Assembly (NCBI RefSeq): GCF_018398935.1
Contig: NZ_CP074694.1
Span: 5,550,001 to 5,582,000, forward strand
Length of the DNA stretch: 32,000 bases
Direction of reading: 5' to 3'
Source: Telmatocola sphagniphila
GTDB lineage: Bacteria; Planctomycetota; Planctomycetia; Gemmatales; Gemmataceae
Part shown: positions 1,853 to 26,119 of the stretch, piece by piece
How the letters are laid out: the number at the start of each line of letters is the position of its first letter
How positions within the stretch are numbered: the first letter of the stretch is position 1
The notes under the pieces: model-generated
Database searches by the model: none
Told to the model about the DNA's origin: nothing
Seen by the model: the letters and a program-made list of their open reading frames with translations, nothing else
Program-made: the position numbers and the translations under genes

Positions 1853-1866
1853 GATTGTGACTTGCT

Positions 1867-1894
1867 CTCGACTTTGAAGTCGAGGTTTATTTTT
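1867..1894 (+). terminator. stem-loop plus U-tract (terminator of the SDR gene or attenuator in the nuo leader)
   Basis: CTCGACT (1867-1873), loop TTGA, AGTCGAG (1878-1884), followed by GTTTATTTTT. The stem is 7 bp and perfect. Confidence 0.35.
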
Positions 1895-1945
1895 GCTGGA
1901 CTTTGTGAAAAAAAGCACAAAGTTGGGCCAGGGAAAGGAATAGCT

Positions 1946-2401
1946 GTGCCTCTTCTCGCGGTAACTGATCTGCCCGTTCAGACTACGGCCGGTTTGGAAC
2001 CAGCTTTCGATCTGGTTACTTATTATCCCCTGTTCATTTTTCTGGGTTTTGTTCTGCTGTTTGCCTTTGGCATTCTGGTCGCGGTTTACACGCCGTTTCT
2101 CAAGCCGAAAAAAGATACCGTCGTGAAATTGATGCCCTACGAATCGGGGATGGATCCGGTGGGCGATGCCCGCATGCAGTTCGATATCAAGTTCTATCTG
2201 ATCGCCATCTTGTTCCTGGTGTTCGACGTGGAATTGTTGTTCCTCTATCCCTGGGCGACCATCGCCTACTCGGATAATGCTGCTCCTTTCTGGCGGGCCG
2301 AATTCGGGCGGCTGGTCTTCATTGAAATTCTGGTTTTCCTTCTGACGCTGGGCATTGCCTACATCTATGCCTGGCGAAAAGGGGTGTTCGCATGGCGGTA
2401 G
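1946..2401 (+). CDS. nuoA: NADH-quinone oxidoreductase subunit A
   Basis: [40 protein letters not shown] is the NuoA/ND3 signature. The frame is open from TTG 1862, but those codons cover two stem-loops. The in-frame GTG at 1946, preceded by GGAAAGGAA (1932-1940), is preferred; the start remains uncertain. Confidence 0.85.
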
Positions 2402-2976
2402 CCTTACCCGATTTCATCATCAGCAAACTCGATTGGATCGCGAACGAAGCGCGAGCCAACAGCATCTGGCCCATGCCATTCGCCACCGCCTGCTGCGGCA
2501 TCGAACTGATGGCCACGGCTAGTTCCCGCTACGACATTGGCCGATTCGGGGCCGAAGCCATGCGGTTTTCCCCCCGACAGTGCGACCTGATGATTGTCGC
2601 GGGCCGGGTGGTCATGAAGATGATTCCCGTAATGCAGCGAATCTGGCAGCAGATGCCCGAACCGAAGTGGTGCATCAGCATGGGGGCCTGTGCCTCCTCG
2701 GGTGGCGTATTCGATACTTATGCCGTCGTGCAGGGAATTGATCGGTTTATTCCTGTCGATGTGTACGTTCCGGGCTGCCCGCCCCGGCCAGAGCAGCTGA
2801 TTCGGGCCGTGCTGGATCTTCAGGAGAAGGTTCGAAATACGGGTACGATCGACGCTCGCGAATTTGCCGAACGCAAAGTTTTCGAAGGCCCGGCCAGCCT
2901 CTACAAGGAACTGCAGCCGAGCGAAACCATCGTTGTGCCAGGCGACTACTCCACGGCCACTCGAACGCGAAACTAA
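2392..2976 (+). CDS. nuoB: NADH-quinone oxidoreductase subunit B
   Basis: Carries the N2 cluster motifs [16 protein letters not shown] and PGCPPRPE. The ATG overlaps the end of nuoA by 10 nt. Confidence 0.95.
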
Positions 2977-3007
2977 TCCGCAGGACTGGCGACCGAAGAA
3001 GAGAACC

Positions 3008-3502
3008 ATGAGCAAAACCAGCGATTTTCTGACTCAGAACTTCGGATCGGCCGTGTCGCTCTCCGAATACCGCGATAATCAGCGGGTGGTAGTGGCCTCG
3101 GCCCGGGTCTTTGAACTTCTGCAAACGCTGAAGGAAAAGCAGGGATTCGATTTGCTGTCCGATGTGACGGCCGTCGATTATCTGGAATTTCCCGGTGCCA
3201 AAGATCGTTACGGCGTGGTTTACGTGCTGACGAACACGGTCACCGGCGAGACACTTATCGTCAAAACATTTGTGAACGATCCGACTCCAAAGCTGAAATC
3301 GGTTTATTCTCTCTGGAAAGGGGCCGATTGGCTGGAACGCGAAGTTTACGATATGTTCGGCATTGAATTCGAAGGACATCCGGATCTGCGACGAATCTTG
3401 TTGCCGCAAGAGTTTGTCTCATTCCCGCTTCGCAAAGATTACCCGCTGCGAGGCAAGGGAGAACGGCATAACTTCGTGCCGTTGATTCGAGCTGAAGGAT
3501 AA
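3008..3502 (+). CDS. nuoC: NADH-quinone oxidoreductase subunit C
   Basis: [25 protein letters not shown] is the NuoC/30-kDa signature. The track ORF opens at 2864, which would overlap nuoB by 113 nt, so ATG 3008 (164 aa) was chosen. Confidence 0.9.
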
Positions 3503-3507
3503 AAAAA

Positions 3508-3553
3508 GCTGTCAGCGATCAACTAAATGAGCTTTCAGCTGTCAGCTTTGAGC
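3508..3553 (-). repeat. about 6 heptamer units in reverse orientation (nnTCAGC, the complement of GCTGAnn), partly degenerate
   Basis: Reads agc tgtcagc gatcaac taaatgagc tttcagc tgtcagc tttgagc. Starts 6 nt after the nuoC stop. Confidence 0.8.
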
Positions 3554-3647
3554 CAGGATATGCAGGCTTAACTGTCTGTGCTGGATCATCTGAGCTTTGG
3601 ATTGAAAAGGGATAGTTGAATACACGAAGAGCCGGATTCTTACATTT

Positions 3648-3766
3648 GCTGACCGCTGACCGCTGATAGCTAAAAGCTGATTGCTGACCGCTGACCGCTG
3701 AAAGCTGACCGCTGATAGCTAAAAGCTGATTGCTGACCGCTGAAAGCTGACCGCTGACCGCTGAAA
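3648..3766 (+). repeat. 17 consecutive phase-perfect heptamers of GCT[G/A]A[C/T/A][C/A/T]
   Basis: Parsed by hand: gctgacc gctgacc gctgata gctaaaa gctgatt gctgacc gctgacc gctgaaa gctgacc gctgata gctaaaa gctgatt gctgacc gctgaaa gctgacc gctgacc gctgaaa. An exact 40-nt internal duplication exists (3655-3694 equals 3704-3743). The array ends about 24 nt before the nuoD start. Confidence 0.97.
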
Positions 3767-3789
3767 GCTTGTATTTTGGAGATTGCAAC

Positions 3790-5022
3790 GTGCCTTTAAC
3801 TGCTGCCGCTCCGTATCCGGTCGACGTCGAGGATGACTCGCCAGACAAGGAATATCTCTATACCCTCAATTTCGGGCCGCAGCACCCGGCTACCCACACC
3901 ACACTGCGGTTAATCCTGACTTTGGATGGCGAGACCATCGTCAAGGCCGTGCCCGATATCGGCTTTTTGCACTCCGGCTTCGAAAAGCTCGGTGAAGATC
4001 TCGACTTCAATCAATATGTGACCATCGTCGACCGGATGAATTACATTTCGCCGATCGCCAATGAAATTGCCTGGCACAATGCGGTCGAGAAGCTTCTGGA
4101 CATTCAGTTGACGCCGCGTTGCAAGTATATCCGCACCATTATCGCCGAGCTGGCCCGTATCTCGGATCACTTGCTCTGCATCGGTGCGGTTGCCCTCGAC
4201 CTGGGTGGTCTGACGGCCTTCCTTTATGCTTTCAATGCACGCGAAGGCATCTACAACATCTTCGAAAATATGTCCGGCCAGCGCTTCCACCCCAGTTATA
4301 CTCGGGTCGGCGGCCTGATGATGGACGTCAGCGAAGACTGGATCGAGTTGATCCGCAAGTTTGTGCGAGAGTTCCCGCAGGTTCATTCGGATGTATGCCG
4401 GCTTCTGAACAAGAATCGAATATTTATTGATCGCACTAAAGGGGTGGGTGTGCTTTCGAAAGAAGAAGCCACCAACCGCAGTGCGACGGGGCCCTGTGCC
4501 CGCGCTTCCGGGGTTACTCGCGATATCCGCAAAGACGCGCCCTATCTGGCGTACAAGGATTTCGAGTTCAAGACAGTCTGTGCGAAGGGGGGCGACTGCT
4601 TCAGCCGATACCTTGTTCGCATGGAGGAGATGCGCGAAAGTCTTTCGATCATCAAACAGGCCGTGGAGAATATCCCAACCGGGCCGGTGAATGTGGACAT
4701 CGATGACCGATTGACCATTCCCGATAAAACTTCGACCTATCGCAGTATTGAAGGATTGATTCAGCATTTCGAATTGATCATGACTAATCGCCGCTGGAAG
4801 AGTCCGTTGGAAGAAGTTTACGCGGCCACAGAATCGCCCAACGGCGAACTCGGCTTCTACATTGTGGGCTCAGGCGAAGGGAAGGCGTATCGGGCTAGGA
4901 CCCGGCCGCCATCATTCATCCACTTCGCGATGTTCCCTTACTTAATTGAGGGACATCAGATTTCGGACGTCCCGGCAGTGTTGGGGTCGTTGAATATTAT
5001 TGCGGCGGAGTTGGATCGATAA
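3790..5022 (+). CDS. nuoD: NADH-quinone oxidoreductase subunit D
   Basis: NFGPQHPATHTTLRL, FHPSYTRVGG and the C-terminal VLGSLNIIAAELDR are NuoD/49-kDa signatures. The track start, TTG 3769, lies in the degenerate end of the repeat. GTG 3790 with GGAG at 3778-3781 is preferred. Confidence 0.93.
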   Translation: MPLTAAAPYPVDVEDDSPDKEYLYTLNFGPQHPATHTTLRLILTLDGETIVKAVPDIGFLHSGFEKLGEDLDFNQYVTIVDRMNYISPIANEIAWHNAVEKLLDIQLTPRCKYIRTIIAELARISDHLLCIGAVALDLGGLTAFLYAFNAREGIYNIFENMSGQRFHPSYTRVGGLMMDVSEDWIELIRKFVREFPQVHSDVCRLLNKNRIFIDRTKGVGVLSKEEATNRSATGPCARASGVTRDIRKDAPYLAYKDFEFKTVCAKGGDCFSRYLVRMEEMRESLSIIKQAVENIPTGPVNVDIDDRLTIPDKTSTYRSIEGLIQHFELIMTNRRWKSPLEEVYAATESPNGELGFYIVGSGEGKAYRARTRPPSFIHFAMFPYLIEGHQISDVPAVLGSLNIIAAELDR

Positions 5023-5025
5023 AGA

Positions 5026-5060
5026 GCGATCAGCTGACAGCTGTCAGCTGTCAGCAAGAC
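5026..5060 (-). repeat. heptamer array (gcgatca gctgaca gctgtca gctgtca gcaagac) containing a perfect 16-nt palindrome
   Basis: GCTGACAGCTGTCAGC at 5033-5048 is its own reverse complement. When phased as nnTCAGC the units are in reverse orientation. Starts 4 nt after the nuoD stop. Confidence 0.85.
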
Positions 5061-5221
5061 ATGATGCCGATTAGTTAAAATTGATAGTTGATAAAAGTTA
5101 AAATGGTACTGCTGAAAGTTAACCACTGTCGCTGATGGTTTACAAAAGCCCTGCATTCCACCGTTCGCCCTCGGTTGAAAGCAGAATCAGATAGGGCGGG
5201 AAGTTTTTAAGAGCTAGCCCG

Positions 5222-5578
5222 ATGAAAGACTTTAGATCTTTGCTCGTATGGCAAAAGTCTCATGATCTGGCATTAAAAATTTATCGGGCAACGAGTGAAT
5301 TTCCCAAGACGGAGCTTTACGGTTTAACTTCGCAGCTGAGACGTGCGGTAGTTTCTATCCCGTCGAATATTGCTGAGGGCTGTGGAAGAGGTTCCGAAGC
5401 CGATTTTGCTAGGTTTCTTCAGTTGTCGATGGGATCGGCTAGTGAAGTGGAATACCAAATCTTGCTAGGGAAAGATTTGGCTTTATTGTCGGAAACAGAA
5501 TATTTCCGATTGAATTCGGCAATTGTGGAAGTGAAGCGAATGTTATCGTCACTCATAGCCAAAATTCGAAAAGGTTGA
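5222..5578 (+). CDS. four-helix-bundle protein (23S rRNA intervening-sequence protein family; same fold family as DGR Avd)
   Basis: 118 aa. LLVWQKSHDLALKIYRATSEFPKTELYGLTSQLRRAVVSIPSNIAEGCGRGSEADFARFLQLSMGSASEVEYQILL is the hallmark of this family (PF05635/TIGR02436 from memory). It is visibly AT-rich: 20 of the first 60 nt are G/C, against 38 of 60 in a nuoD sample counted by hand. Confidence 0.88.
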   Translation: MKDFRSLLVWQKSHDLALKIYRATSEFPKTELYGLTSQLRRAVVSIPSNIAEGCGRGSEADFARFLQLSMGSASEVEYQILLGKDLALLSETEYFRLNSAIVEVKRMLSSLIAKIRKG

Positions 5579-5645
5579 ATTTTATTGGAAAGGCTTCTTT
5601 AGGGTTAGCACAGTGCTAAATCTGATTTTGAAAAGGTTTTGTATT

Positions 5646-5687
5646 GCTGATTGCTGATTGCTGACCGCTGACCGCTAATAGCTAAAT
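5646..5687 (+). repeat. 6 forward heptamers (gctgatt gctgatt gctgacc gctgacc gctaata gctaaat)
   Basis: Parsed by hand. Ends 13 nt before the nuoE ATG at 5701. Confidence 0.93.
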
Positions 5688-5700
5688 ATCGAAAGCAACT

Positions 5701-6183
5701 ATGTCTATACTCTCGAACGAGCTGCGAGAAAAGATTCAAGCGTATATCCCCCGCTACCCTAACAAGCAGGCGGTGACCTTGCCCGCATTGCATCTGGTGC
5801 AGGATGCCTTGCGCTGCGTCCCCAATGAGGCGGTACGCGAGATCGCTCAGATGCTCGATCTAGCTCCCTCGGAAGTTTACGACACCATGACCTTCTACGG
5901 CTTCTTCCGGGAAGATCATAATAAGCTCGGCAAAAATCGACTGTGGGTCTGTCGGAGTCTGGCTTGCAATCTTCGTGGCGCGGACGATCTGCTTGGCCAC
6001 TTCTGCGACAAACTGCATGTGGCCCCCGGAGAGACGACCAAAGACGGCAAAATCACGCTCGAATTCGCGGAGTGCATCGGGGCCTGCGAAGGCGCCCCCT
6101 GTGTGCTGATCAACGACGAACACGAACTGAACATCACCAACGAAAAAGCGGATCAATTAATAGCGAGATTGCAAAAAGCATAA
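5701..6183 (+). CDS. nuoE: NADH-quinone oxidoreductase subunit E
   Basis: 160 aa. Carries the 2Fe-2S (N1a) cysteines in CRSLACNLRG and ECIGACEGAPC. Confidence 0.93.
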   Translation: MSILSNELREKIQAYIPRYPNKQAVTLPALHLVQDALRCVPNEAVREIAQMLDLAPSEVYDTMTFYGFFREDHNKLGKNRLWVCRSLACNLRGADDLLGHFCDKLHVAPGETTKDGKITLEFAECIGACEGAPCVLINDEHELNITNEKADQLIARLQKA

Positions 6184-6186
6184 CTG

Positions 6187-6225
6187 TTAACCGCGACGCG
6201 AACAAGAAATATTAACCGCGACGCG
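6187..6225 (+). repeat. 14-nt perfect direct repeat TTAACCGCGACGCG, two copies
   Basis: Copies at 6187-6200 and 6212-6225, separated by 11 nt, in the nuoE-nuoF spacer. Confidence 0.9.
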
Positions 6226-6268
6226 CAGCGGAGCGTCTATAAAGCGAATTCACCCTCGGATTGAATAT

Positions 6269-7597
6269 ATGTCGAATTACGAACCAATTTTGCTCGCTCG
6301 CATCGGCAAGCCCGAAAGCTATAAGCTGGAAGGTTACCGCGCCGATGGCGGCTACGAAGCGTTCCTGAAGGCTCTCAAGAATTCCAAGCCGAACGAAGTC
6401 GTCGATACGATCAAAAACTCCGGTCTGCGCGGCCGCGGCGGTGCGGGATTTCCCACTGGCTTGAAATGGACCTTTCTGCCCAAGGATCACCCGGGTCCTA
6501 TCTATCTGTGCGTGAATGCCGACGAATCGGAACCTTGTACCTTCAATAACCGCATCCTGATGGAACTCGATCCGCATCAGGTTCTCGAAGGGGTCATGCT
6601 CGCCTGCTATGCGATCAAGAGTTCCCGCGCTTACTATTACATCCGCTACGAATATGGTTTGAGCTACCGCCGTTTGCAAGCGGCCATCGATGAACTTTAT
6701 GCCGCTGGCTTGCTCGGTCAGAATATCCAAGGTTCCGGTTTCAATCTCGATATCTATCTGCACCGCGGGGCTGGGGCGTATGTCTGTGGAGAAGAAACGG
6801 GATTGATCGAATCGCTGGAAGGCAAACGGGCCTGGCCGCGCATCAAGCCGCCGTTCCCGGCCATTGAAGGGGCGTTCCGCAAGCCCACCATCGTCAACAA
6901 CGTCGAAACCCTGGCTTGCGTTACCCAAATCATGCGTCGTGGGATCGACTGGTTCAAATCGATCGGAGTGGCGCCCGATCCGAAGAATCCCCGCGATGCG
7001 GGCAGCTACGGTCCGAAGCTTTACTGCGTTTCCGGACACGTGAATAATCCCGGCTGCTGGGAATTGCCCTTAGGCGTGACCTCGAATGAATTGATTCGGC
7101 TGGCCGGCGGCGTCTGGAAGGGTCGCAAAGTCAAAGCGGTTGTGCCCGGCGGACTCAGCATGGGTTTTTTAACCGCCAATGAACTGGAAGTGCCACTCGA
7201 TTTCAACGGCCCGGGTAAAGTCGGCTGCCTCGGTCTGGGAACGGCCGCTATAACGGTGATCGACGACCAAACCAGCATGATCGACGTGCTGCACAACACC
7301 TGCCAGTTCTACGCCCACGAATCGTGCGGCCAGTGCACCCCCTGTCGGGAAGGAACTGGTTGGATGCTGAAGATCACCGATCGACTTCGCAAAGGGCAGG
7401 GGCGAAAAGAAGACCTCGATATTCTGGTCGAAGTCGCCGACCGGATTGGTATCATGCCGGGATCGACGATTTGCGGCTTGGCCGATGGAGCGGGCTGGCC
7501 AGTGAAGAATGCGATTCGCAAGTTCCGTCAGGAATTCGAAGATGCGATCAAGACCGGCCGGAGAAGCCATTTGCGTCCTTTGGCGATGGCTCATTGA
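6269..7597 (+). CDS. nuoF: NADH-quinone oxidoreductase subunit F
   Basis: 442 aa. GLRGRGGAGFPTG marks the FMN/NADH site and ESCGQCTPCREG is the N3 4Fe-4S motif. Confidence 0.96.
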   Translation: MSNYEPILLARIGKPESYKLEGYRADGGYEAFLKALKNSKPNEVVDTIKNSGLRGRGGAGFPTGLKWTFLPKDHPGPIYLCVNADESEPCTFNNRILMELDPHQVLEGVMLACYAIKSSRAYYYIRYEYGLSYRRLQAAIDELYAAGLLGQNIQGSGFNLDIYLHRGAGAYVCGEETGLIESLEGKRAWPRIKPPFPAIEGAFRKPTIVNNVETLACVTQIMRRGIDWFKSIGVAPDPKNPRDAGSYGPKLYCVSGHVNNPGCWELPLGVTSNELIRLAGGVWKGRKVKAVVPGGLSMGFLTANELEVPLDFNGPGKVGCLGLGTAAITVIDDQTSMIDVLHNTCQFYAHESCGQCTPCREGTGWMLKITDRLRKGQGRKEDLDILVEVADRIGIMPGSTICGLADGAGWPVKNAIRKFRQEFEDAIKTGRRSHLRPLAMAH

Positions 7598-7677: not shown

Positions 7678-8115
7678 ATGCGTCGATTAAGTCTGATTTT
7701 TCTGGCGCTCTGGGTCTGTACCGGCTGCAATAAGACTGCGGGAACCGCAGATAAAAAAGGGAATGTCCCGAATACTAAGGAATCCTCCGATGATCGACAG
7801 ATCTCGAATGATTTGAAGCAACTGGGACTGGCGTTTCTCAACTATACGAGTACCCAGAAGGATATGAATCCGATCACGAGCCCTTTCGTCGGATCCCTGG
7901 ATGTGTTGAAGCCCTATCTGGGGGAAAAGGAAAATCCCCGACTGGTGCCGACTCTGGAGAGCGGTAAGTACAAGATCTTCTGGAATGCACCTGCTAAACA
8001 GAGAATCCTCGCCTGCGAAAAGGATGCGGAAACCAAAGGGGGCTTAGTTCTTACTCGAATTGGCTCCGTGGAAAGAATGTCGGCGGAAGAAATTCAGAAG
8101 GCCATTGTCAAATAA
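7678..8115 (+). CDS. small lipoprotein, paralog 1 (mini DUF1559/pseudopilin-like motifs)
   Basis: 145 aa. It has a signal peptide and Cys (MRRLSLIFLALWVCTGC), with GGAG 8 nt upstream. It is a paralog of the next ORF. SNDLKQLGLAFLNY and GGLVLTRIGSVERMS resemble the NNLKQIGLAxHNY and DGSVrFis motifs of planctomycetal DUF1559 proteins (by eye). Confidence 0.75.
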   Translation: MRRLSLIFLALWVCTGCNKTAGTADKKGNVPNTKESSDDRQISNDLKQLGLAFLNYTSTQKDMNPITSPFVGSLDVLKPYLGEKENPRLVPTLESGKYKIFWNAPAKQRILACEKDAETKGGLVLTRIGSVERMSAEEIQKAIVK

Positions 8116-8135: not shown

Positions 8136-8588
8136 ATGCGTCGATTACTCTTACTCGCCTGCCTGACGGTCGCTCTCCTGGGTTGCAAGAAGGAAGCGAA
8201 GGAGACGGAACCCAAAGCTAAGGCCATGAATCCGTTCGACCGGAGTGAGAAAACAGGTAATGGCGTGATCTCCGATGTGGCCCGCGCTCCCAAGCGAACC
8301 GTGGCCCAGAACGATATGCACAATCTTCACCTGTTGATCGAAACGATCTCCGGTGCCAGCGGTAATATGCCCGATGCGAACACGATTCTGACTTCCCTGA
8401 AGCAGGATCCGGATGCCAGAAAGATTGCCCAGTATATTGAGGAAGGCTGGATAATCCTGACTGGAATAAAACAGCGGGAAGGGGTCTGGGCCTACGAAAA
8501 AGAGGCTTTGACTACCCGCGGCTTCGTGGTGACCAACAGCGGCGTGGAGATGTTGAGCAAGGAAGAGCTTCAAGCGAAGCTTCGCTGA
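8136..8588 (+). CDS. small lipoprotein, paralog 2
   Basis: 150 aa. It has a good lipobox (MRRLLLLACLTVALLGC) and GGGAGG upstream. It shares the N-terminus, a central ND(L/M)xxL motif and a C-terminal EK(D/E)AxTxxGxVxTxxGxVExxSxEE(I/L)Q with paralog 1. Confidence 0.75.
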   Translation: MRRLLLLACLTVALLGCKKEAKETEPKAKAMNPFDRSEKTGNGVISDVARAPKRTVAQNDMHNLHLLIETISGASGNMPDANTILTSLKQDPDARKIAQYIEEGWIILTGIKQREGVWAYEKEALTTRGFVVTNSGVEMLSKEELQAKLR

Positions 8589-8646: not shown

Positions 8647-10290
8647 ATGGCAACGGTTTACGTCAATAACAAGGCGATAGACATCGGCAACGAGCGGCTT
8701 AACTGCGTGCAGGCCGCGGAGAAAGCCGGTGTTCTCGTTCCGCACTACTGCTACCACCCCGCGCTTTCGGTCGTGGCCAGTTGCCGCATGTGTCTGGTCG
8801 AAGTTGGTGAAAAAAAGCCGGATGGCACCATCGCTATGCAGCCCAAGGTCGTGCCCGGCTGCCAGACTCCCGTCAAAGACGGTACGGTTATCGTTACCGA
8901 CAGTCCCAAAGCCAAGGCCGCCCAGGGGGATACGCTGGAAGGGCTTTTGCTCAATCATCCGCTCGATTGCCCCGTTTGCGATAAGGCCGGCGAGTGCAAG
9001 TTGCAGGATTACTCCTTCCAGTTCGGGCATGCCCAGTCGCGCATGATCGATCAGAAGAATACGCCTCCGAATAAACCGGACATCAGCGAAAAGATCACTT
9101 TATTCACCGACCGCTGCATCCTCTGTACTCGCTGCGTCCGCTTCACCCGGGAAGTCGCCGGTACCGCCGAATTGACGGTGGTCGGCCGCGGCCACCACGA
9201 AGAAATAGATATTTTTCCCGGCGAGCCGCTGGCCAACAAACTGTCGGGGAACGTCGTCGATCTTTGCCCGGTCGGCGCCCTCGGTTCCAAGGACTTTCTG
9301 TACAAACAACGCGTCTGGTATCTCAAGGAAGAAGACAGCGTTTGCCCGAACTGTTCGACCGGCTGCAGCATCCAGGTCGATTCGAACAAGGATATCGTCT
9401 TCCGGCTGCGGCCGCGTTTCAACCCGCTGGCGCAAGGGCACTTCATGTGCGATGAAGGCCGTTACGGGTATCACTACATCAATTCGGATACCCGATTCGG
9501 CAAACCACTCGAACAGATTGAAGTGGGGCAGTTCAAAGCCGTAAGCTGGCAGAATGCCCTCAGCGGCATCAAAAAAGAGTTTCTCCTGGCCGGACAGGAA
9601 CATTCCGATCAGCTCTACGCGATTTTGTCGCCATTTCTGACCGTCGAGGAAGCCTATCTGGCGGCGAAATGGTTCAAAATGATTTCGCCGAATTCCAAGC
9701 TCGCGCTGGGGGCGGTTCCCGTTCACGGCGAGAACGATACTTATCCCAAGGATCGTCGCGGCAATGCTACCAGCACCGTGAAATTCACGATTCGGGCGGA
9801 AAAAGCTCCGAATCGACTGGGTGTGGAAGCGGTGTTGAAGCATTTCGAAGGAGAAGTGATCACTTTCGATCAGGTAGTTGAAGCCGTGAAGAGGAACGAA
9901 GTACAAGGTCTGTTCCTCACCGCGGGTTATCCGGACTCCAAGACGATCGACGATTATCAGGCCGACCGACTGGACGATGTGAAGCTGCTGGTAACGCTCG
10001 ATCTGTTGCCGAGCACGGTCGCCTCGGGTTCGAAATATATTTTGCCGGCCACGAGTTTTGCGGAAAAAGAAGGCACCTACGTCAACTACGCGGGATTGGC
10101 TCAAGGCCTCAAGCGAACGGTGAAAGCTCCGAAGGAATGCCGTCCGGAAGCCCAGATTTTCATGGATTTGCTTGGACTTCCCGGCCTCTACAACGCTCAA
10201 ACGATTCGGGAAATGATCGCTCGCGAAATTCCCTATTTCGCCCCGCTGGCGAAGGGGATTGGCGAATATGGTGTGAAGCTGGGGACCTGA
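8647..10290 (+). CDS. nuoG: NADH-quinone oxidoreductase subunit G (short form)
   Basis: 547 aa. It has 2Fe-2S cysteines at the N-terminus, HPLDCPVCDKAGECKLQD (N5), CILCTRCVRF...CPVGAL (N4), and CPNCSTGCS...MCDEGR (N7-type). Confidence 0.92.
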   Translation: MATVYVNNKAIDIGNERLNCVQAAEKAGVLVPHYCYHPALSVVASCRMCLVEVGEKKPDGTIAMQPKVVPGCQTPVKDGTVIVTDSPKAKAAQGDTLEGLLLNHPLDCPVCDKAGECKLQDYSFQFGHAQSRMIDQKNTPPNKPDISEKITLFTDRCILCTRCVRFTREVAGTAELTVVGRGHHEEIDIFPGEPLANKLSGNVVDLCPVGALGSKDFLYKQRVWYLKEEDSVCPNCSTGCSIQVDSNKDIVFRLRPRFNPLAQGHFMCDEGRYGYHYINSDTRFGKPLEQIEVGQFKAVSWQNALSGIKKEFLLAGQEHSDQLYAILSPFLTVEEAYLAAKWFKMISPNSKLALGAVPVHGENDTYPKDRRGNATSTVKFTIRAEKAPNRLGVEAVLKHFEGEVITFDQVVEAVKRNEVQGLFLTAGYPDSKTIDDYQADRLDDVKLLVTLDLLPSTVASGSKYILPATSFAEKEGTYVNYAGLAQGLKRTVKAPKECRPEAQIFMDLLGLPGLYNAQTIREMIAREIPYFAPLAKGIGEYGVKLGT

Positions 10291-24019: not shown

Positions 24020-25534
24020 ATGAGCACTCTGAATCTGAATCTCTCTCCGGATCTCAAAGCATACTTTGCCGAAGAGCGCCGAGCGATCGACGAATCCTGT
24101 CGGTTACCAGTGCTGGTTTTTTTCGGCAGCGCGTTGGTCTGGTTGATTGTCGGCACACTACTCGGGTTAACCGCTTCGCTGAAGATGCACACGCCCGATT
24201 TTCTCGCCGACCATAGCTGGCTGACCTTCGGACGAATTCGACCGGCGCATTTGAACATGGTCACCATGGGCTGGGCGTCCAGCGCGGGCCTCGGTTGTTC
24301 CATCTGGTTGATGTGCCGTCTGTCGCGAATTCCTTTGATCTATCCCCGCATTCTTTTGATTGCCGCACTATCCCTCAATCTCGGGATGATTATCGCGCTC
24401 GTGGGAGTTCTCTCGGGATTCAGTCAGGGGGTGGAATGGCTGGAGCCGCCCCAGATTGTAGCGCCCTTCATGACTACCGCTCTCGCCCTCGTCTCGGCCT
24501 GGCTTATCGCCACACTCAGGAAACGGCGGGAAAAACACATCTACGTCACCCAATGGTACATCTTCGGCGCAATGTTCTGGATGCCCTGGATGTACACGGT
24601 CGCCCAACTGGTAATTTTTGGTATTCCGGGAGTGATGGATCCTGCTCGCGGCGTCGTTCAAGCCACCTGCAACTGGTGGTTTGCCCACAATTTTCTCGGC
24701 CTCTGGCTGACTCCGATCGGGGTCGGCGCGGCCTACTATATCATCCCAAAAATTGTCGGCCGGCCGGTGTATAGCTATCACCTGAGCATCATCGGATTCT
24801 GGGCTACCGCACTTTTCTACAGCTGGGTGGGCATGCATCATCTCATCGGTGGGCCGCTGCCGGCCTGGATGGTGACCGCCTCCATCGCCGGTTCCATACT
24901 GATGATCATCCCGGTGATGGCCGTGGCTCTCAATCATCACATGACCATGTGGGGTCATTTCCAGCAGCTGGTCTACAGCCCGGCCCTTCGCTTCGTCGTA
25001 TTCGGAGCCATCACTTATACGGCCGTCAGTATTCAAGGTTCGTTCGAAGCGTTACGCGATATGAACGTTATTACGCACTTCACCCACTACACCATTGCGC
25101 ACGCGCATCTCGGGGTCTATGGCTTTTATTCCATGGTGATGTTCGGCACCATGTATTACATCGTGCCGCGCTTGACCGGCGTGGAATGGGCATCGGCCAA
25201 ATTAATTCGCCTGCATTTCTGGAGCACATCTTTCGGCATAACCATCTATTACACCAGTCTGACTTTAGGGGGCTGGTACCAGGGACAAGCCCTGATTGCT
25301 GTAAACGAATTGAATCAACCGACTCCCTTCATTGAAATCGTACGCTACACGCAACCGTATCTGATCGGCCGCAGCATCGGCGGCTCCCTGATGGCTATCG
25401 GCCATTTCGTATTTGCCTATCTGTTCGTAGTTAATGTCTGTCGCTTGGGGCCGGTCAATGGGGGGCCGACTTATTTTGTGCCGCATGCTCAACCTTTAGC
25501 GGTCAGCGATCAGCAGTCAGCGGTCAGCTATTAG
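24020..25534 (+). CDS. ccoN: cbb3-type (C-family) heme-copper oxidase subunit I, orphan
   Basis: 504 aa and polytopic. FGRIRPAHLN carries the low-spin heme His. WWFAHNFLGLW carries a CuB His (compare WWYGHNAVGF). FYSWVGMHHL carries the cross-link Tyr and the HH CuB ligands (compare YIWAGPHHL). TIAHAHLG carries the heme b3 and heme b His residues (compare GHVH). Confidence 0.88.
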   Translation: MSTLNLNLSPDLKAYFAEERRAIDESCRLPVLVFFGSALVWLIVGTLLGLTASLKMHTPDFLADHSWLTFGRIRPAHLNMVTMGWASSAGLGCSIWLMCRLSRIPLIYPRILLIAALSLNLGMIIALVGVLSGFSQGVEWLEPPQIVAPFMTTALALVSAWLIATLRKRREKHIYVTQWYIFGAMFWMPWMYTVAQLVIFGIPGVMDPARGVVQATCNWWFAHNFLGLWLTPIGVGAAYYIIPKIVGRPVYSYHLSIIGFWATALFYSWVGMHHLIGGPLPAWMVTASIAGSILMIIPVMAVALNHHMTMWGHFQQLVYSPALRFVVFGAITYTAVSIQGSFEALRDMNVITHFTHYTIAHAHLGVYGFYSMVMFGTMYYIVPRLTGVEWASAKLIRLHFWSTSFGITIYYTSLTLGGWYQGQALIAVNELNQPTPFIEIVRYTQPYLIGRSIGGSLMAIGHFVFAYLFVVNVCRLGPVNGGPTYFVPHAQPLAVSDQQSAVSY

Positions 25535-25570
25535 CTAGTAGCGGTCAGCGATCAGCGATCAGCGGTCAGC
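25498..25570 (-). repeat. 10 heptamers in reverse orientation (ggtcagc gatcagc agtcagc ggtcagc tattagc tagtagc ggtcagc gatcagc gatcagc ggtcagc)
   Basis: Parsed by hand from 25501 and phase-perfect. The first five units encode the last residues (AVSDQQSAVSY) and the TAG stop of the ccoN-like ORF. Confidence 0.95.
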
Positions 25571-25630
25571 ATTGAATAAACCATTGCCTTTGGTCAGTAA
25601 CGCTTGAGCGTGAACAATTAGCATTTCCTA

Positions 25631-25651
25631 GCTGAAAGCTGAAAGCTGAAA
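25631..25651 (+). repeat. 3 forward heptamers (gctgaaa x3) plus a degenerate fourth
   Basis: gctgaaagctgaaagctgaaagctctat. It abuts the stop (25655) of the convergent 154-aa gene. Confidence 0.9.
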
Positions 25652-25654
25652 GCT

Positions 25655-26119
25655 CTATATATCCTCCTCAATCAATATCGGCTGACGGTCGGTCCGGGTC
25701 ATCACCCGGTAGTAGCGGGAAGGCTCCTTGCAGACGACGTAAACGTGCGGGATCTGATTTTGATCGCGAACCAGTATTCCCTGTATTCCCTGCCGGACGG
25801 GGTACCAGACGCCGTTGGCTAAAGCGAGATTTGCCAGGATGCGCACTCCTTCCGGCTGACAATTTCCCCAACGTCCTTCGTCGAGACTCTGTTTCCAGGT
25901 CCAGCCGGTTTGCGGCAAAGCACAACGGCGGTCGATATTGCCCCAGGGGACGATTTGAAACTCTCCTTCGTACCAAATCGGTAGCAAGCGCACGGCGTCC
26001 AGCCAGAGAAAACGAAACTCCTGGATGCCCGGCCCGCGCGAGTAGAGCCGTTTACGCAGTCGGAAGCGTTCGACCAGCTCGGGCGGAATTTCGCATTCGA
26101 GAAGTGCCACGCCGTTCAT
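25655..26119 (-). CDS. hypothetical 154-aa protein translationally coupled to the UmuC-like polymerase; possibly a degenerate SRAP-like fold
   Basis: Its ATG shares one base with the polymerase TGA (TGATG at 26117-26121). Motif resemblance to the SRAP in this window, by eye: EFQIVPWG versus EIARLRWG; LANGVWYPVRQ versus PADGFYEWKQ; VVCKEPSRYYRVMTRTDRQPILIEE versus IVTTEASEIIKPLHERMPVMVEPE. It lacks Cys2, the Glu in the DGxxEW-equivalent motif and the His in the HxRMP-equivalent motif; no NARxE-type motif is recognisable. Confidence 0.7.
   Translation of the reverse strand: MNGVALLECEIPPELVERFRLRKRLYSRGPGIQEFRFLWLDAVRLLPIWYEGEFQIVPWGNIDRRCALPQTGWTWKQSLDEGRWGNCQPEGVRILANLALANGVWYPVRQGIQGILVRDQNQIPHVYVVCKEPSRYYRVMTRTDRQPILIEEDI

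Follow-up and report, generated by a model that had tools for sequence, protein, structure and literature searches.

A gap of 678 nt between nuoD and nuoE, in the plus-strand complex I operon of a 32,000-nt stretch of the Telmatocola sphagniphila genome (contig NZ_CP074694.1, positions 5,550,001 to 5,582,000; hereafter the window), holds one small gene of the PF05635 four-helix-bundle (4HB) family, bounded by two complementary arrays of heptamers. With a probability of roughly 60%, we read this insert as a cassette of the intervening-sequence (IVS) type, familiar from 23S rRNA, that sits in an mRNA operon. The arrays belong to the 4HB gene family and not to nuo: gene and arrays form one evolutionary unit across phyla and in unrelated neighborhoods, and the heptamer sequence shifts with the protein lineage while the arms stay complementary. 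As a rule the cassette stands between genes of the same direction, a short way behind the upstream one, and among Gemmataceae it is present or absent at the nuoD–nuoE junction. A sequence-only reading of the same DNA had described the insert as a mobile element that ends in inverted arrays and carries a 4HB cargo gene. Its observation is confirmed and its interpretation supported, with the amendments given below. The IVS parallel is one that it does not draw. The data presented here bring together three long-separate puzzles: the role of PF05635 proteins, the nature and movement of rRNA IVSs that bear an open reading frame (ORF), and gene-adjacent 7-nt repeats. The 4HB gene and its inverted arrays would then be a unit that inserts both in operons (complex I, CRISPR-cas, partition, transfer) and in rRNA helices.

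The 4HB gene is the sole sense ORF in the gap. Its product matches PF05635 over profile positions 2–105 of 106 (E = 1.8e-39, 134.7 bits, cut-off 33.8) and TIGR02436 with similar strength (E = 1.1e-39, 135 bits, cut-off 24), full-length scores above the curated cut-offs that place it in a large family (24,403 representatives of clusters at 50% identity match PF05635 at E ≤ 1e-3). The closest solved relatives by sequence match are 2GSC (XCC0516, E = 8e-21) and 2RLD (E = 5e-6), each with five chains per entry, and the PADLOC defense-system models gave no match for the protein. The window's copy is compositionally foreign. GC content is 0.43 in the ORF against 0.53–0.54 in nuoD and nuoE, and GC at third codon positions (GC3) is 0.41 against 0.66 in nuoD, nuoE and nuoF, which adds to the foreignness that the sequence-only reading had drawn from its count, which is exact, of 20 G/C among the 60 nt at the start of the gene. 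That reading was equally correct on the single 4HB gene in the 678-nt gap, on its sense orientation (plus strand, like nuoD and nuoE) and on the absence of a reverse transcriptase (RT), no RT domain being found among the scanned window ORFs.

The left array reads GCGATCAGCTGACAGCTGTCAGCTGTCAGC, starts 4 nt past the nuoD stop codon and includes the perfect palindrome GCTGACAGCTGTCAGC at 5033–5048; reverse heptamers and palindrome are as the sequence-only reading had them. On the right, the units run GCTGATT, GCTGATT, GCTGACC, GCTGACC, GCTAATA and GCTAAAT and stop 13 nt before the nuoE ATG. Here the earlier description of six GCTGAnn heptamers stands in position, number and distance to nuoE, with the correction that two of the six are GCTAAnn. 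Within the arrays the 5-nt core is conserved and the 2-nt spacer is free to vary. The window contains 25 copies of GCTGANNGCTGA against 0.1 expected from shuffles, all confined to 3508–3766, 5026–5687 and 25498–25654. As tandem 7-nt units in intergenic positions near start or stop codons, with variable copy number, the arrays qualify as heptamer simple sequence repeats; the right arm counts 5, 6 or 7 units in near-identical contigs, a length polymorphism in unit steps. An identical 4HB protein occurs at the same junction on three short contigs from other metagenomes (L001–L003), which indicates that the window's species is found in several metagenomes. The three substitutions within the ORF among these contigs and the window are all synonymous, because all four sequences translate to the same protein. 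A scan of 3300–6300, with a consensus that may not suit Planctomycetes, gave one promoter-like site against 2.8 expected and three terminator-like sites against 2.8 expected.

Table. Features of the window (positions count from its first nucleotide)
Feature	Position	Strand	Basis or remark
nuoA	1862–2401	+	Pfam match
nuoB	2392–2976	+	Pfam match
nuoC	2864–3502	+	Pfam match
Left arm, gene-less pair in nuoC–nuoD spacer	3508–3553	+	Inverted repeats I1–I3; folding
Right arm of that pair, ~17 GCTGAnn units, reaching the nuoD start	3648–3766	+	Period 7, unit counts
nuoD (complex I 49-kDa subunit; upstream host gene)	3769–5022, stop codon 5020–5022	+	PF00346, E = 7.7e-102
Cassette left arm, reverse heptamers (nnTCAGC / CAGCTGn) with palindrome	5026–5060	+	Direct reading; period 7 (Tandem Repeats Finder); pairs with right arm
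AT-rich cassette leader	5061–5221	+	One weak sigma-70-like match at 5075–5104, chance level
4HB gene (PF05635 / TIGR02436, '23S rRNA intervening sequence protein'), 118 aa	5222–5578	+	Profile matches, GC3
3' spacer, 4HB stop codon to right arm	5579–5645	+	Direct reading
Cassette right arm, six forward heptamers (4 GCTGAnn + 2 GCTAAnn)	5646–5687	+	Direct reading; period 7
nuoE (downstream host gene)	5701–6183	+	PF01257, E = 2.5e-42
nuoF	6269–7597	+	Pfam match
Two ORFs between nuoF and nuoG	7678–8115 and 8136–8588	+	Without Pfam/NCBIfam match
nuoG	8647–10290	+	Pfam match
Left arm, second gene-less pair, ~10 nnTCAGC units	25498–25570	+	Overlaps 3' end of ccoN-like ORF 24020–25534
Right arm of second gene-less pair, 3.6 AGCTGAA units	25631–25654	+	Abuts 3' end of minus-strand ORF 25655–26119

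The link between gene and arrays holds well outside nuo. With an alignment of the five nuo-sited 4HB proteins as query, a metagenome scan returned 80 further loci, 50–70% identical to the query; none adjoins nuoD or nuoE, and their GC content spans 0.29–0.68. When the 200 nt upstream of a gene were aligned locally with the reverse complement of the 200 nt downstream, a flanking inverted repeat at z ≥ 4 was found for 58% of 74 4HB genes and for 5% of 80 ORFs from the same contigs (Mann–Whitney p = 2e-15), and two of the four positives among these controls were second 4HB genes themselves. An in-phase core, for which we required three or more copies of a 5-nt motif in a single 7-nt phase upstream and two or more in-phase copies of the motif's reverse complement downstream, was detected at 42 of 76 testable 4HB loci against 2 of 113 control ORFs. 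The commonest core, TCAGC/GCTGA (18 loci), is that of the window; others are TTAGC, TGAGC, TAAGC, TCAGA and TAAGT. A strict detector of lag-7 identity found arrays on both sides in just 23 of the 76 loci because it misses arrays with varying 2-nt spacers, and the in-phase core test was used instead. Two 4HB paralogues on one contig bear different heptamers (L119, L148), and across pairs of loci, proteins of higher identity tend to have more similar cores (Spearman −0.36, a value that none of 2000 Mantel permutations reached). Of 67 metagenome loci, 53 had a co-directional upstream neighbor; the median distance was about 62 nt.

Named organisms were reached by tblastn of PLSDB plasmids, from which 12 neighborhoods were inspected. 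In 10 of the 12, a heptamer array stands upstream of the 4HB gene and its complement downstream: Pseudanabaena, Calothrix, Geminocystis, Nostoc C052, Azospirillum lipoferum, Picosynechococcus (7–8-nt units), Stanieria, Anabaena sp. 90, Nostoc punctiforme and Nostoc ATCC 53789. The array units include GGGAACA, GGGAAAA, GGTGACA, AGTCAGG, GGCAGAA and GGACAGA. In Nostoc PCC 7120 an array follows the gene, the 130 nt ahead of the gene contain no complementary array, and an ISL3 transposase gene lies just upstream; Gemmatirosa has direct octamers. Together with the metagenome counts, these plasmids bear out the expectation of the sequence-only reading that other members of the family would be flanked by arrays.

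The hosts of these cassettes are varied. Sense 4HB genes with heptamer arms stand inside CRISPR-cas operons, twice as cas6–4HB–cas4 and once as cas10–4HB–cmr3, on plasmids of Pseudanabaena galeata (L164), Anabaena sp. 90 (L172) and Picosynechococcus PCC 7003 (L170). A further sense context is parA-like ATPase–4HB–parB, and tra operons also appear among the hosts. A metagenome survey of candidate cas genes reportedly mentions the 4HB family. The 4HB genes with heptamer arms in cas operons may be passengers and not cas components, and for annotation we would treat 4HB genes in cas or nuo operons as probable passengers rather than functional partners. One plasmid shows a more elaborate arrangement: in Pseudanabaena L164 the 4HB gene is preceded, at 1270–1500, by an inverted pair (nnTTAGC, then ~17 AAAGCTA units) and followed, at 1860–1965, by a separate run of ~12 direct AAAAGCC units. 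The number of arrays in a cassette can therefore exceed two, and two related units can be used in them.

Relatives of the nuo operon were gathered by a nuoD protein scan restricted to one genome per species, giving 80 loci, nearly all labeled Gemmataceae/Planctomycetota, with the best nuoD match 80–82% identical; nuo genes were placed in these loci by tblastn and the spacers then measured. The nuoA and nuoB genes overlap in essentially all of them. Across 81 loci, of relatives and of the same population, the nuoD–nuoE spacer varies widely: at one extreme the two genes overlap by 4 nt (12 loci), at the other 1550 nt separate them. A 4HB gene occupies this spacer in only four other relatives (L020, L022, L031, L059), with no further copy elsewhere in the relatives' nuo loci. 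In these four, runs of AGCTnnn-type heptamers flank the gene, the one on the left being the reverse complement of the one on the right. In a neighbor-joining tree of nuoD, the window and the four loci are scattered, next to neighbors with short spacers (23, −4, 44, 12 and 49 nt); L028, the closest relative including the junction, has a spacer of 23 nt. The junction is polymorphic, which agrees with the mobility proposed in the sequence-only reading. The window's protein is 62–68% identical to many copies outside nuo and 40–57% to the other nuo-sited copies, and those of L020, L022 and L031 are 69–74% identical among themselves. This pattern favors more than one arrival at the nuoD–nuoE junction, read with the caution that ranks on 118 residues make no robust phylogeny; our phylogenies are distance-based and built on short proteins.

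The arms of the cassette are predicted to pair. When 5015–5705 (691 nt) was folded as RNA, the left array paired with the right in both the minimum-free-energy (MFE) and the centroid structure (MFE −221.8 kcal/mol, z −5.4), and the arms folded alone gave a 42-bp bulged duplex (−50.1 kcal/mol, z −7.7). At its base the predicted stem links the nuoD stop codon with a position about 9 nt ahead of the nuoE start. In this predicted fold the insert has the complementary termini, with an extended stem around it, that are expected of an IVS.

The best-described relative of this architecture is the Coxiella burnetii IVS, a 428-nt element in helix 45 of 23S rRNA that encodes the protein 'S23p' of the PF05635 family (PMC4990558). 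A 28-bp stem joins its termini, and its ORF is closely preceded by tandem GACAGAT heptamers, two or three depending on the strain, at the first of which an RNase III site has been mapped experimentally. The element has a lower GC content than its host, and the authors regard it as horizontally acquired (PMC4990558). Like the Coxiella and Leptospira IVSs, the nuoD–nuoE insert combines a PF05635 gene, a size similar to theirs (~430–760 nt), complementary termini able to form a long stem around the ORF, a GC content lower than the host's and a sporadic distribution (PMC4990558). Unlike them, it lies between two genes of an mRNA operon and not in rRNA helix 9, 25 or 45 (an Rfam scan of the window returned no rRNA and no other RNA family), and its arms are longer arrays, of 4–6 units here and up to ~17 and 24 in other elements; RNase III cleavage is carried over by analogy.

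Read as an IVS-type cassette, the insert would be promoter-less and transcribed with nuoA–N, and its sense orientation and such likely co-transcription fit the family-wide bias towards co-directional upstream neighbors. The arms would pair in the transcript as a bulged stem of ~42 bp, which may be a substrate for RNase III, by analogy with the 23S rRNA IVSs of Coxiella and Leptospira, where experiments have shown this. A cut there would free the 4HB message and split the nuo message while leaving both flanks intact, and because such clean cleavage would entail no loss of flank, the insert could be tolerated in an essential operon. Spread would take place at the DNA level, with recombination into pre-existing array hairpins as one possibility. 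Rather than the 'cargo' of the sequence-only reading, the 4HB gene seems to be the hallmark gene of the element itself.

Several observations weigh against reading the insert as a mobile IVS-type cassette. About 40% of the family members tested are without detectable arrays, and in Pseudanabaena and Gemmatirosa the closest arrays on the two sides of the gene have a direct rather than an inverted arrangement. No target-site duplication was evident against the closest junctions (L028, L006, L004), and the insert boundaries are not definable because the nearest empty site, that of L028, is too diverged; the scanned window ORFs include no integrase, transposase or other mobility enzyme. The 2-nt spacers of the window's two arms are mostly non-complementary, so the stem is a chain of 5–6-bp helices and small loops. 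Across 43 stems tested for selection on the sense RNA, G·U-compatible mismatches (57) were not in excess over A·C mismatches (59). Nothing therefore favors selection on sense RNA over DNA, which leaves the RNA stem to structure prediction and the Coxiella precedent. Finally, 59 of 117 nuo spacers of 40–350 nt in the relatives (L004–L083) are significant hairpins that span the whole spacer, of many kinds and even where a 4HB gene is absent. Hairpins inside operons seem to be a general habit of Gemmataceae.

This last point invites the view that heptamer hairpins are a generic feature of Gemmataceae spacers, REP-like (repetitive extragenic palindromic) stabilizers or terminators of mRNA, and that the 4HB gene merely landed in one without forming a unit with it. 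Several of the relatives' spacer hairpins are heptamer-built with no 4HB gene, and the window itself has two gene-less array pairs. Yet arrays follow 4HB genes in unrelated hosts over the whole GC range of the metagenome loci, in named cyanobacteria and in Azospirillum, while control ORFs on the same contigs lack them and paralogues on one contig bear different heptamers, all of which leaves this explanation largely refuted and quite improbable. A vertical history, in which the 4HB gene is an ancient, fixed resident of nuo (for example, a complex I accessory factor) often lost elsewhere, and the repeats are slippage debris, could draw on the five Gemmataceae lineages that have the gene at exactly this junction and on L020, L022 and L031 being mutual best matches. 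We consider it very improbable: the copies of the window and L059 are not closest to the other nuo-sited copies, GC3 is far off the host value, sister loci have short spacers or the 4-nt overlap, and the usual contexts of the family in cas, par and tra operons are unrelated to respiration.

To our knowledge, a role within the PF05635 family is known only for Avd, a protein of diversity-generating retroelements (DGRs), and the insert might be a DGR remnant, an Avd gene bereft of its RT and of the template and variable repeats (TR/VR). The 4HB protein does resemble the bAvd model PF22296 (E = 3.6e-4, 21.4 bits) and the DGR-Avd equivalog model NF033474 (E = 2.6e-4, 21.3 bits), both far under the respective cut-offs of 40 and 80. 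It also shares with Avd a homologous four-helix-bundle fold, judged by sequence, and the character of a small basic protein, with five chains in the entries of its solved relatives. Unlike a DGR, however, the window has no RT domain among its scanned ORFs and no long TR/VR-like direct repeat apart from the arrays, and no RT stood beside the gene in the inspected plasmid neighborhoods. We reject this reading as hardly credible.

A more substantial alternative, tentative though it is, holds that the arrays are mainly binding sites for a 4HB oligomer, a 5-nt core every 7 nt on RNA or DNA, and not an RNase III stem, with the protein regulating, protecting or propagating all arrays of its own heptamer across the genome; it can coexist with the IVS-cassette reading. 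The conserved core with its freely varying spacer agrees with it, as do the paralogue-specific co-divergence of heptamer and protein, the reuse of the GCTGA core at the two gene-less sites of the window and the lack of a wobble signal specific to sense RNA. One of 186 GGGAATC arrays of Xanthomonas campestris overlaps the start of XCC0516, which encodes the 2GSC protein, and 2GSC and 2RLD both hold five chains. The Avd protein of DGRs is a nucleic-acid-binding pentamer, and the arrangement would resemble that of a REP-associated tyrosine transposase (RAYT) gene with its REP/REPIN sequences, or of TRAP with its spaced triplets. Against it, co-divergence is equally expected from plain co-inheritance in a cassette, and simple binding needs no inverted arrangement of the arms. 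With similar reserve, we suggest that PF05635 proteins could be dedicated partners of heptamer arrays, each paralogue recognizing its own unit and maintaining, spreading or exploiting all of its arrays in the manner of RAYTs and REPINs, by means of a non-enzymatic bundle. If this were true, one new class of element would take in rRNA IVSs, operon cassettes and the orphan heptamer repeats that number in the hundreds in Xanthomonas, Nostoc, Beggiatoa and Gemmataceae.

Such gene-adjacent heptamers have been described on their own. TAACTGA arrays closely precede start codons in Beggiatoaceae, cyanobacteria and Bacteroidetes (PMC4679880). In Xanthomonas and Nostoc, GGGAATC and GGGGA(T/C)T arrays are over-represented in the gaps between co-directional genes, no more than 50 nt from a gene end, and are mostly transcribed, with 70–75 convergent pairs per Xanthomonas genome (PMC4692102). 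Array no. 15 of the GGGAATC set in X. campestris ATCC 33913, at 622956–622983, is separated from bccP (XCC0517) by 6 nt and extends over the start of XCC0516 (PMC4692102 supplement). The latter gene, uncommented in PMC4692102, encodes the 4HB protein of 2GSC, the closest solved relative of the window's protein. The arrays of the window share with these sequences and with the short tandemly repeated repetitive (STRR) sequences the tandem 7-nt units hugging start and stop codons, the co-directional genes, the variable copy number and, often, the inverted pairing. Those studies tie in no protein family, whereas here the repeats are statistically tied to PF05635 genes. A full-text literature search, which covered few papers from subscription journals, turned up none that makes a general link between PF05635 and heptamers.

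Two other kinds of repeat-flanked unit offer partial parallels. As in REP/REPIN–RAYT systems, a single-copy gene is flanked by inverted short repeats that are also dispersed as intergenic inverted pairs, typically within operons. Unlike a RAYT, which is a Y1/HUH transposase, the flanked gene encodes a PF05635 bundle without a recognizable catalytic motif, and the repeats are tandem arrays and not single palindromes; we use the comparison as an analogy only. Miniature inverted-repeat transposable elements and integron cassettes are likewise small, promoter-less sense units with a terminal inverted structure, host transcription and ORF-less versions. In contrast to them, the insert showed neither a target-site duplication nor an attC-like single site, we found no integrase or cassette array, and the repeats stand on both sides of the gene.

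The gene-less array pairs in the window recur where the sequence-only reading had placed them, with the reverse array first and the forward array second in each, and the two pairs are predicted to fold arm to arm (3503–3768 and 25490–25660). They may be ORF-less relatives of the element, or landing sites. For the earlier proposal that they are decayed copies we found no support: the pairs share arrays alone with the cassette, and a comparison of their cores (3550–3647 and 25571–25630) on both strands with its leader, trailer and ORF gave no similarity (all z ≤ 2.4). The left array of the second pair covers the last 37 nt of the ccoN-like ORF, whose C-terminus and stop codon are therefore encoded by repeat units.

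The nuo spacers of the relatives hold structures and small genes of other kinds as well. Some of their hairpins are heptamer-built, some consist of 8–9-nt units (of the GCACAAAA type) and some are plain palindromes. In L008 (5418–5992) and L016 (2224–2774), a sense gene of the GxxExxY / PDDEXK_3 nuclease family (PF13366, E = 4e-39; TIGR04256) lies between nuoC and nuoD, flanked by ~45-nt inverted repeats that are not heptameric and that directly adjoin the host gene on either side. This is a second family of small genes laid out as a gene inside a hairpin. Sense VapD-like genes occur in the nuoD–nuoE or nuoE–nuoF spacers of L009, L016, L017, L019 and L035, and sense DUF3592 genes in nuo spacers of L004, L030 and L063. 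A DUF433 and PIN-like (DUF5615) pair, probably a toxin–antitoxin module, sits in the nuoE–nuoF spacer of many relatives (36 ORFs in the cluster). In the window, much of that spacer is taken up by a 19-nt direct repeat (AAcTgTTAACCGCGACGCG / AAaTaTTAACCGCGACGCG, 25 nt apart, 6182–6225). The two ORFs between nuoF and nuoG, of 145 and 150 residues, are tandem paralogues with similar leaders and first codons (direct repeat D4). Relatives of the second fill the nuoF–nuoG spacer in most Gemmataceae loci, and the pair therefore looks like a lineage-specific, conserved addition to the operon.

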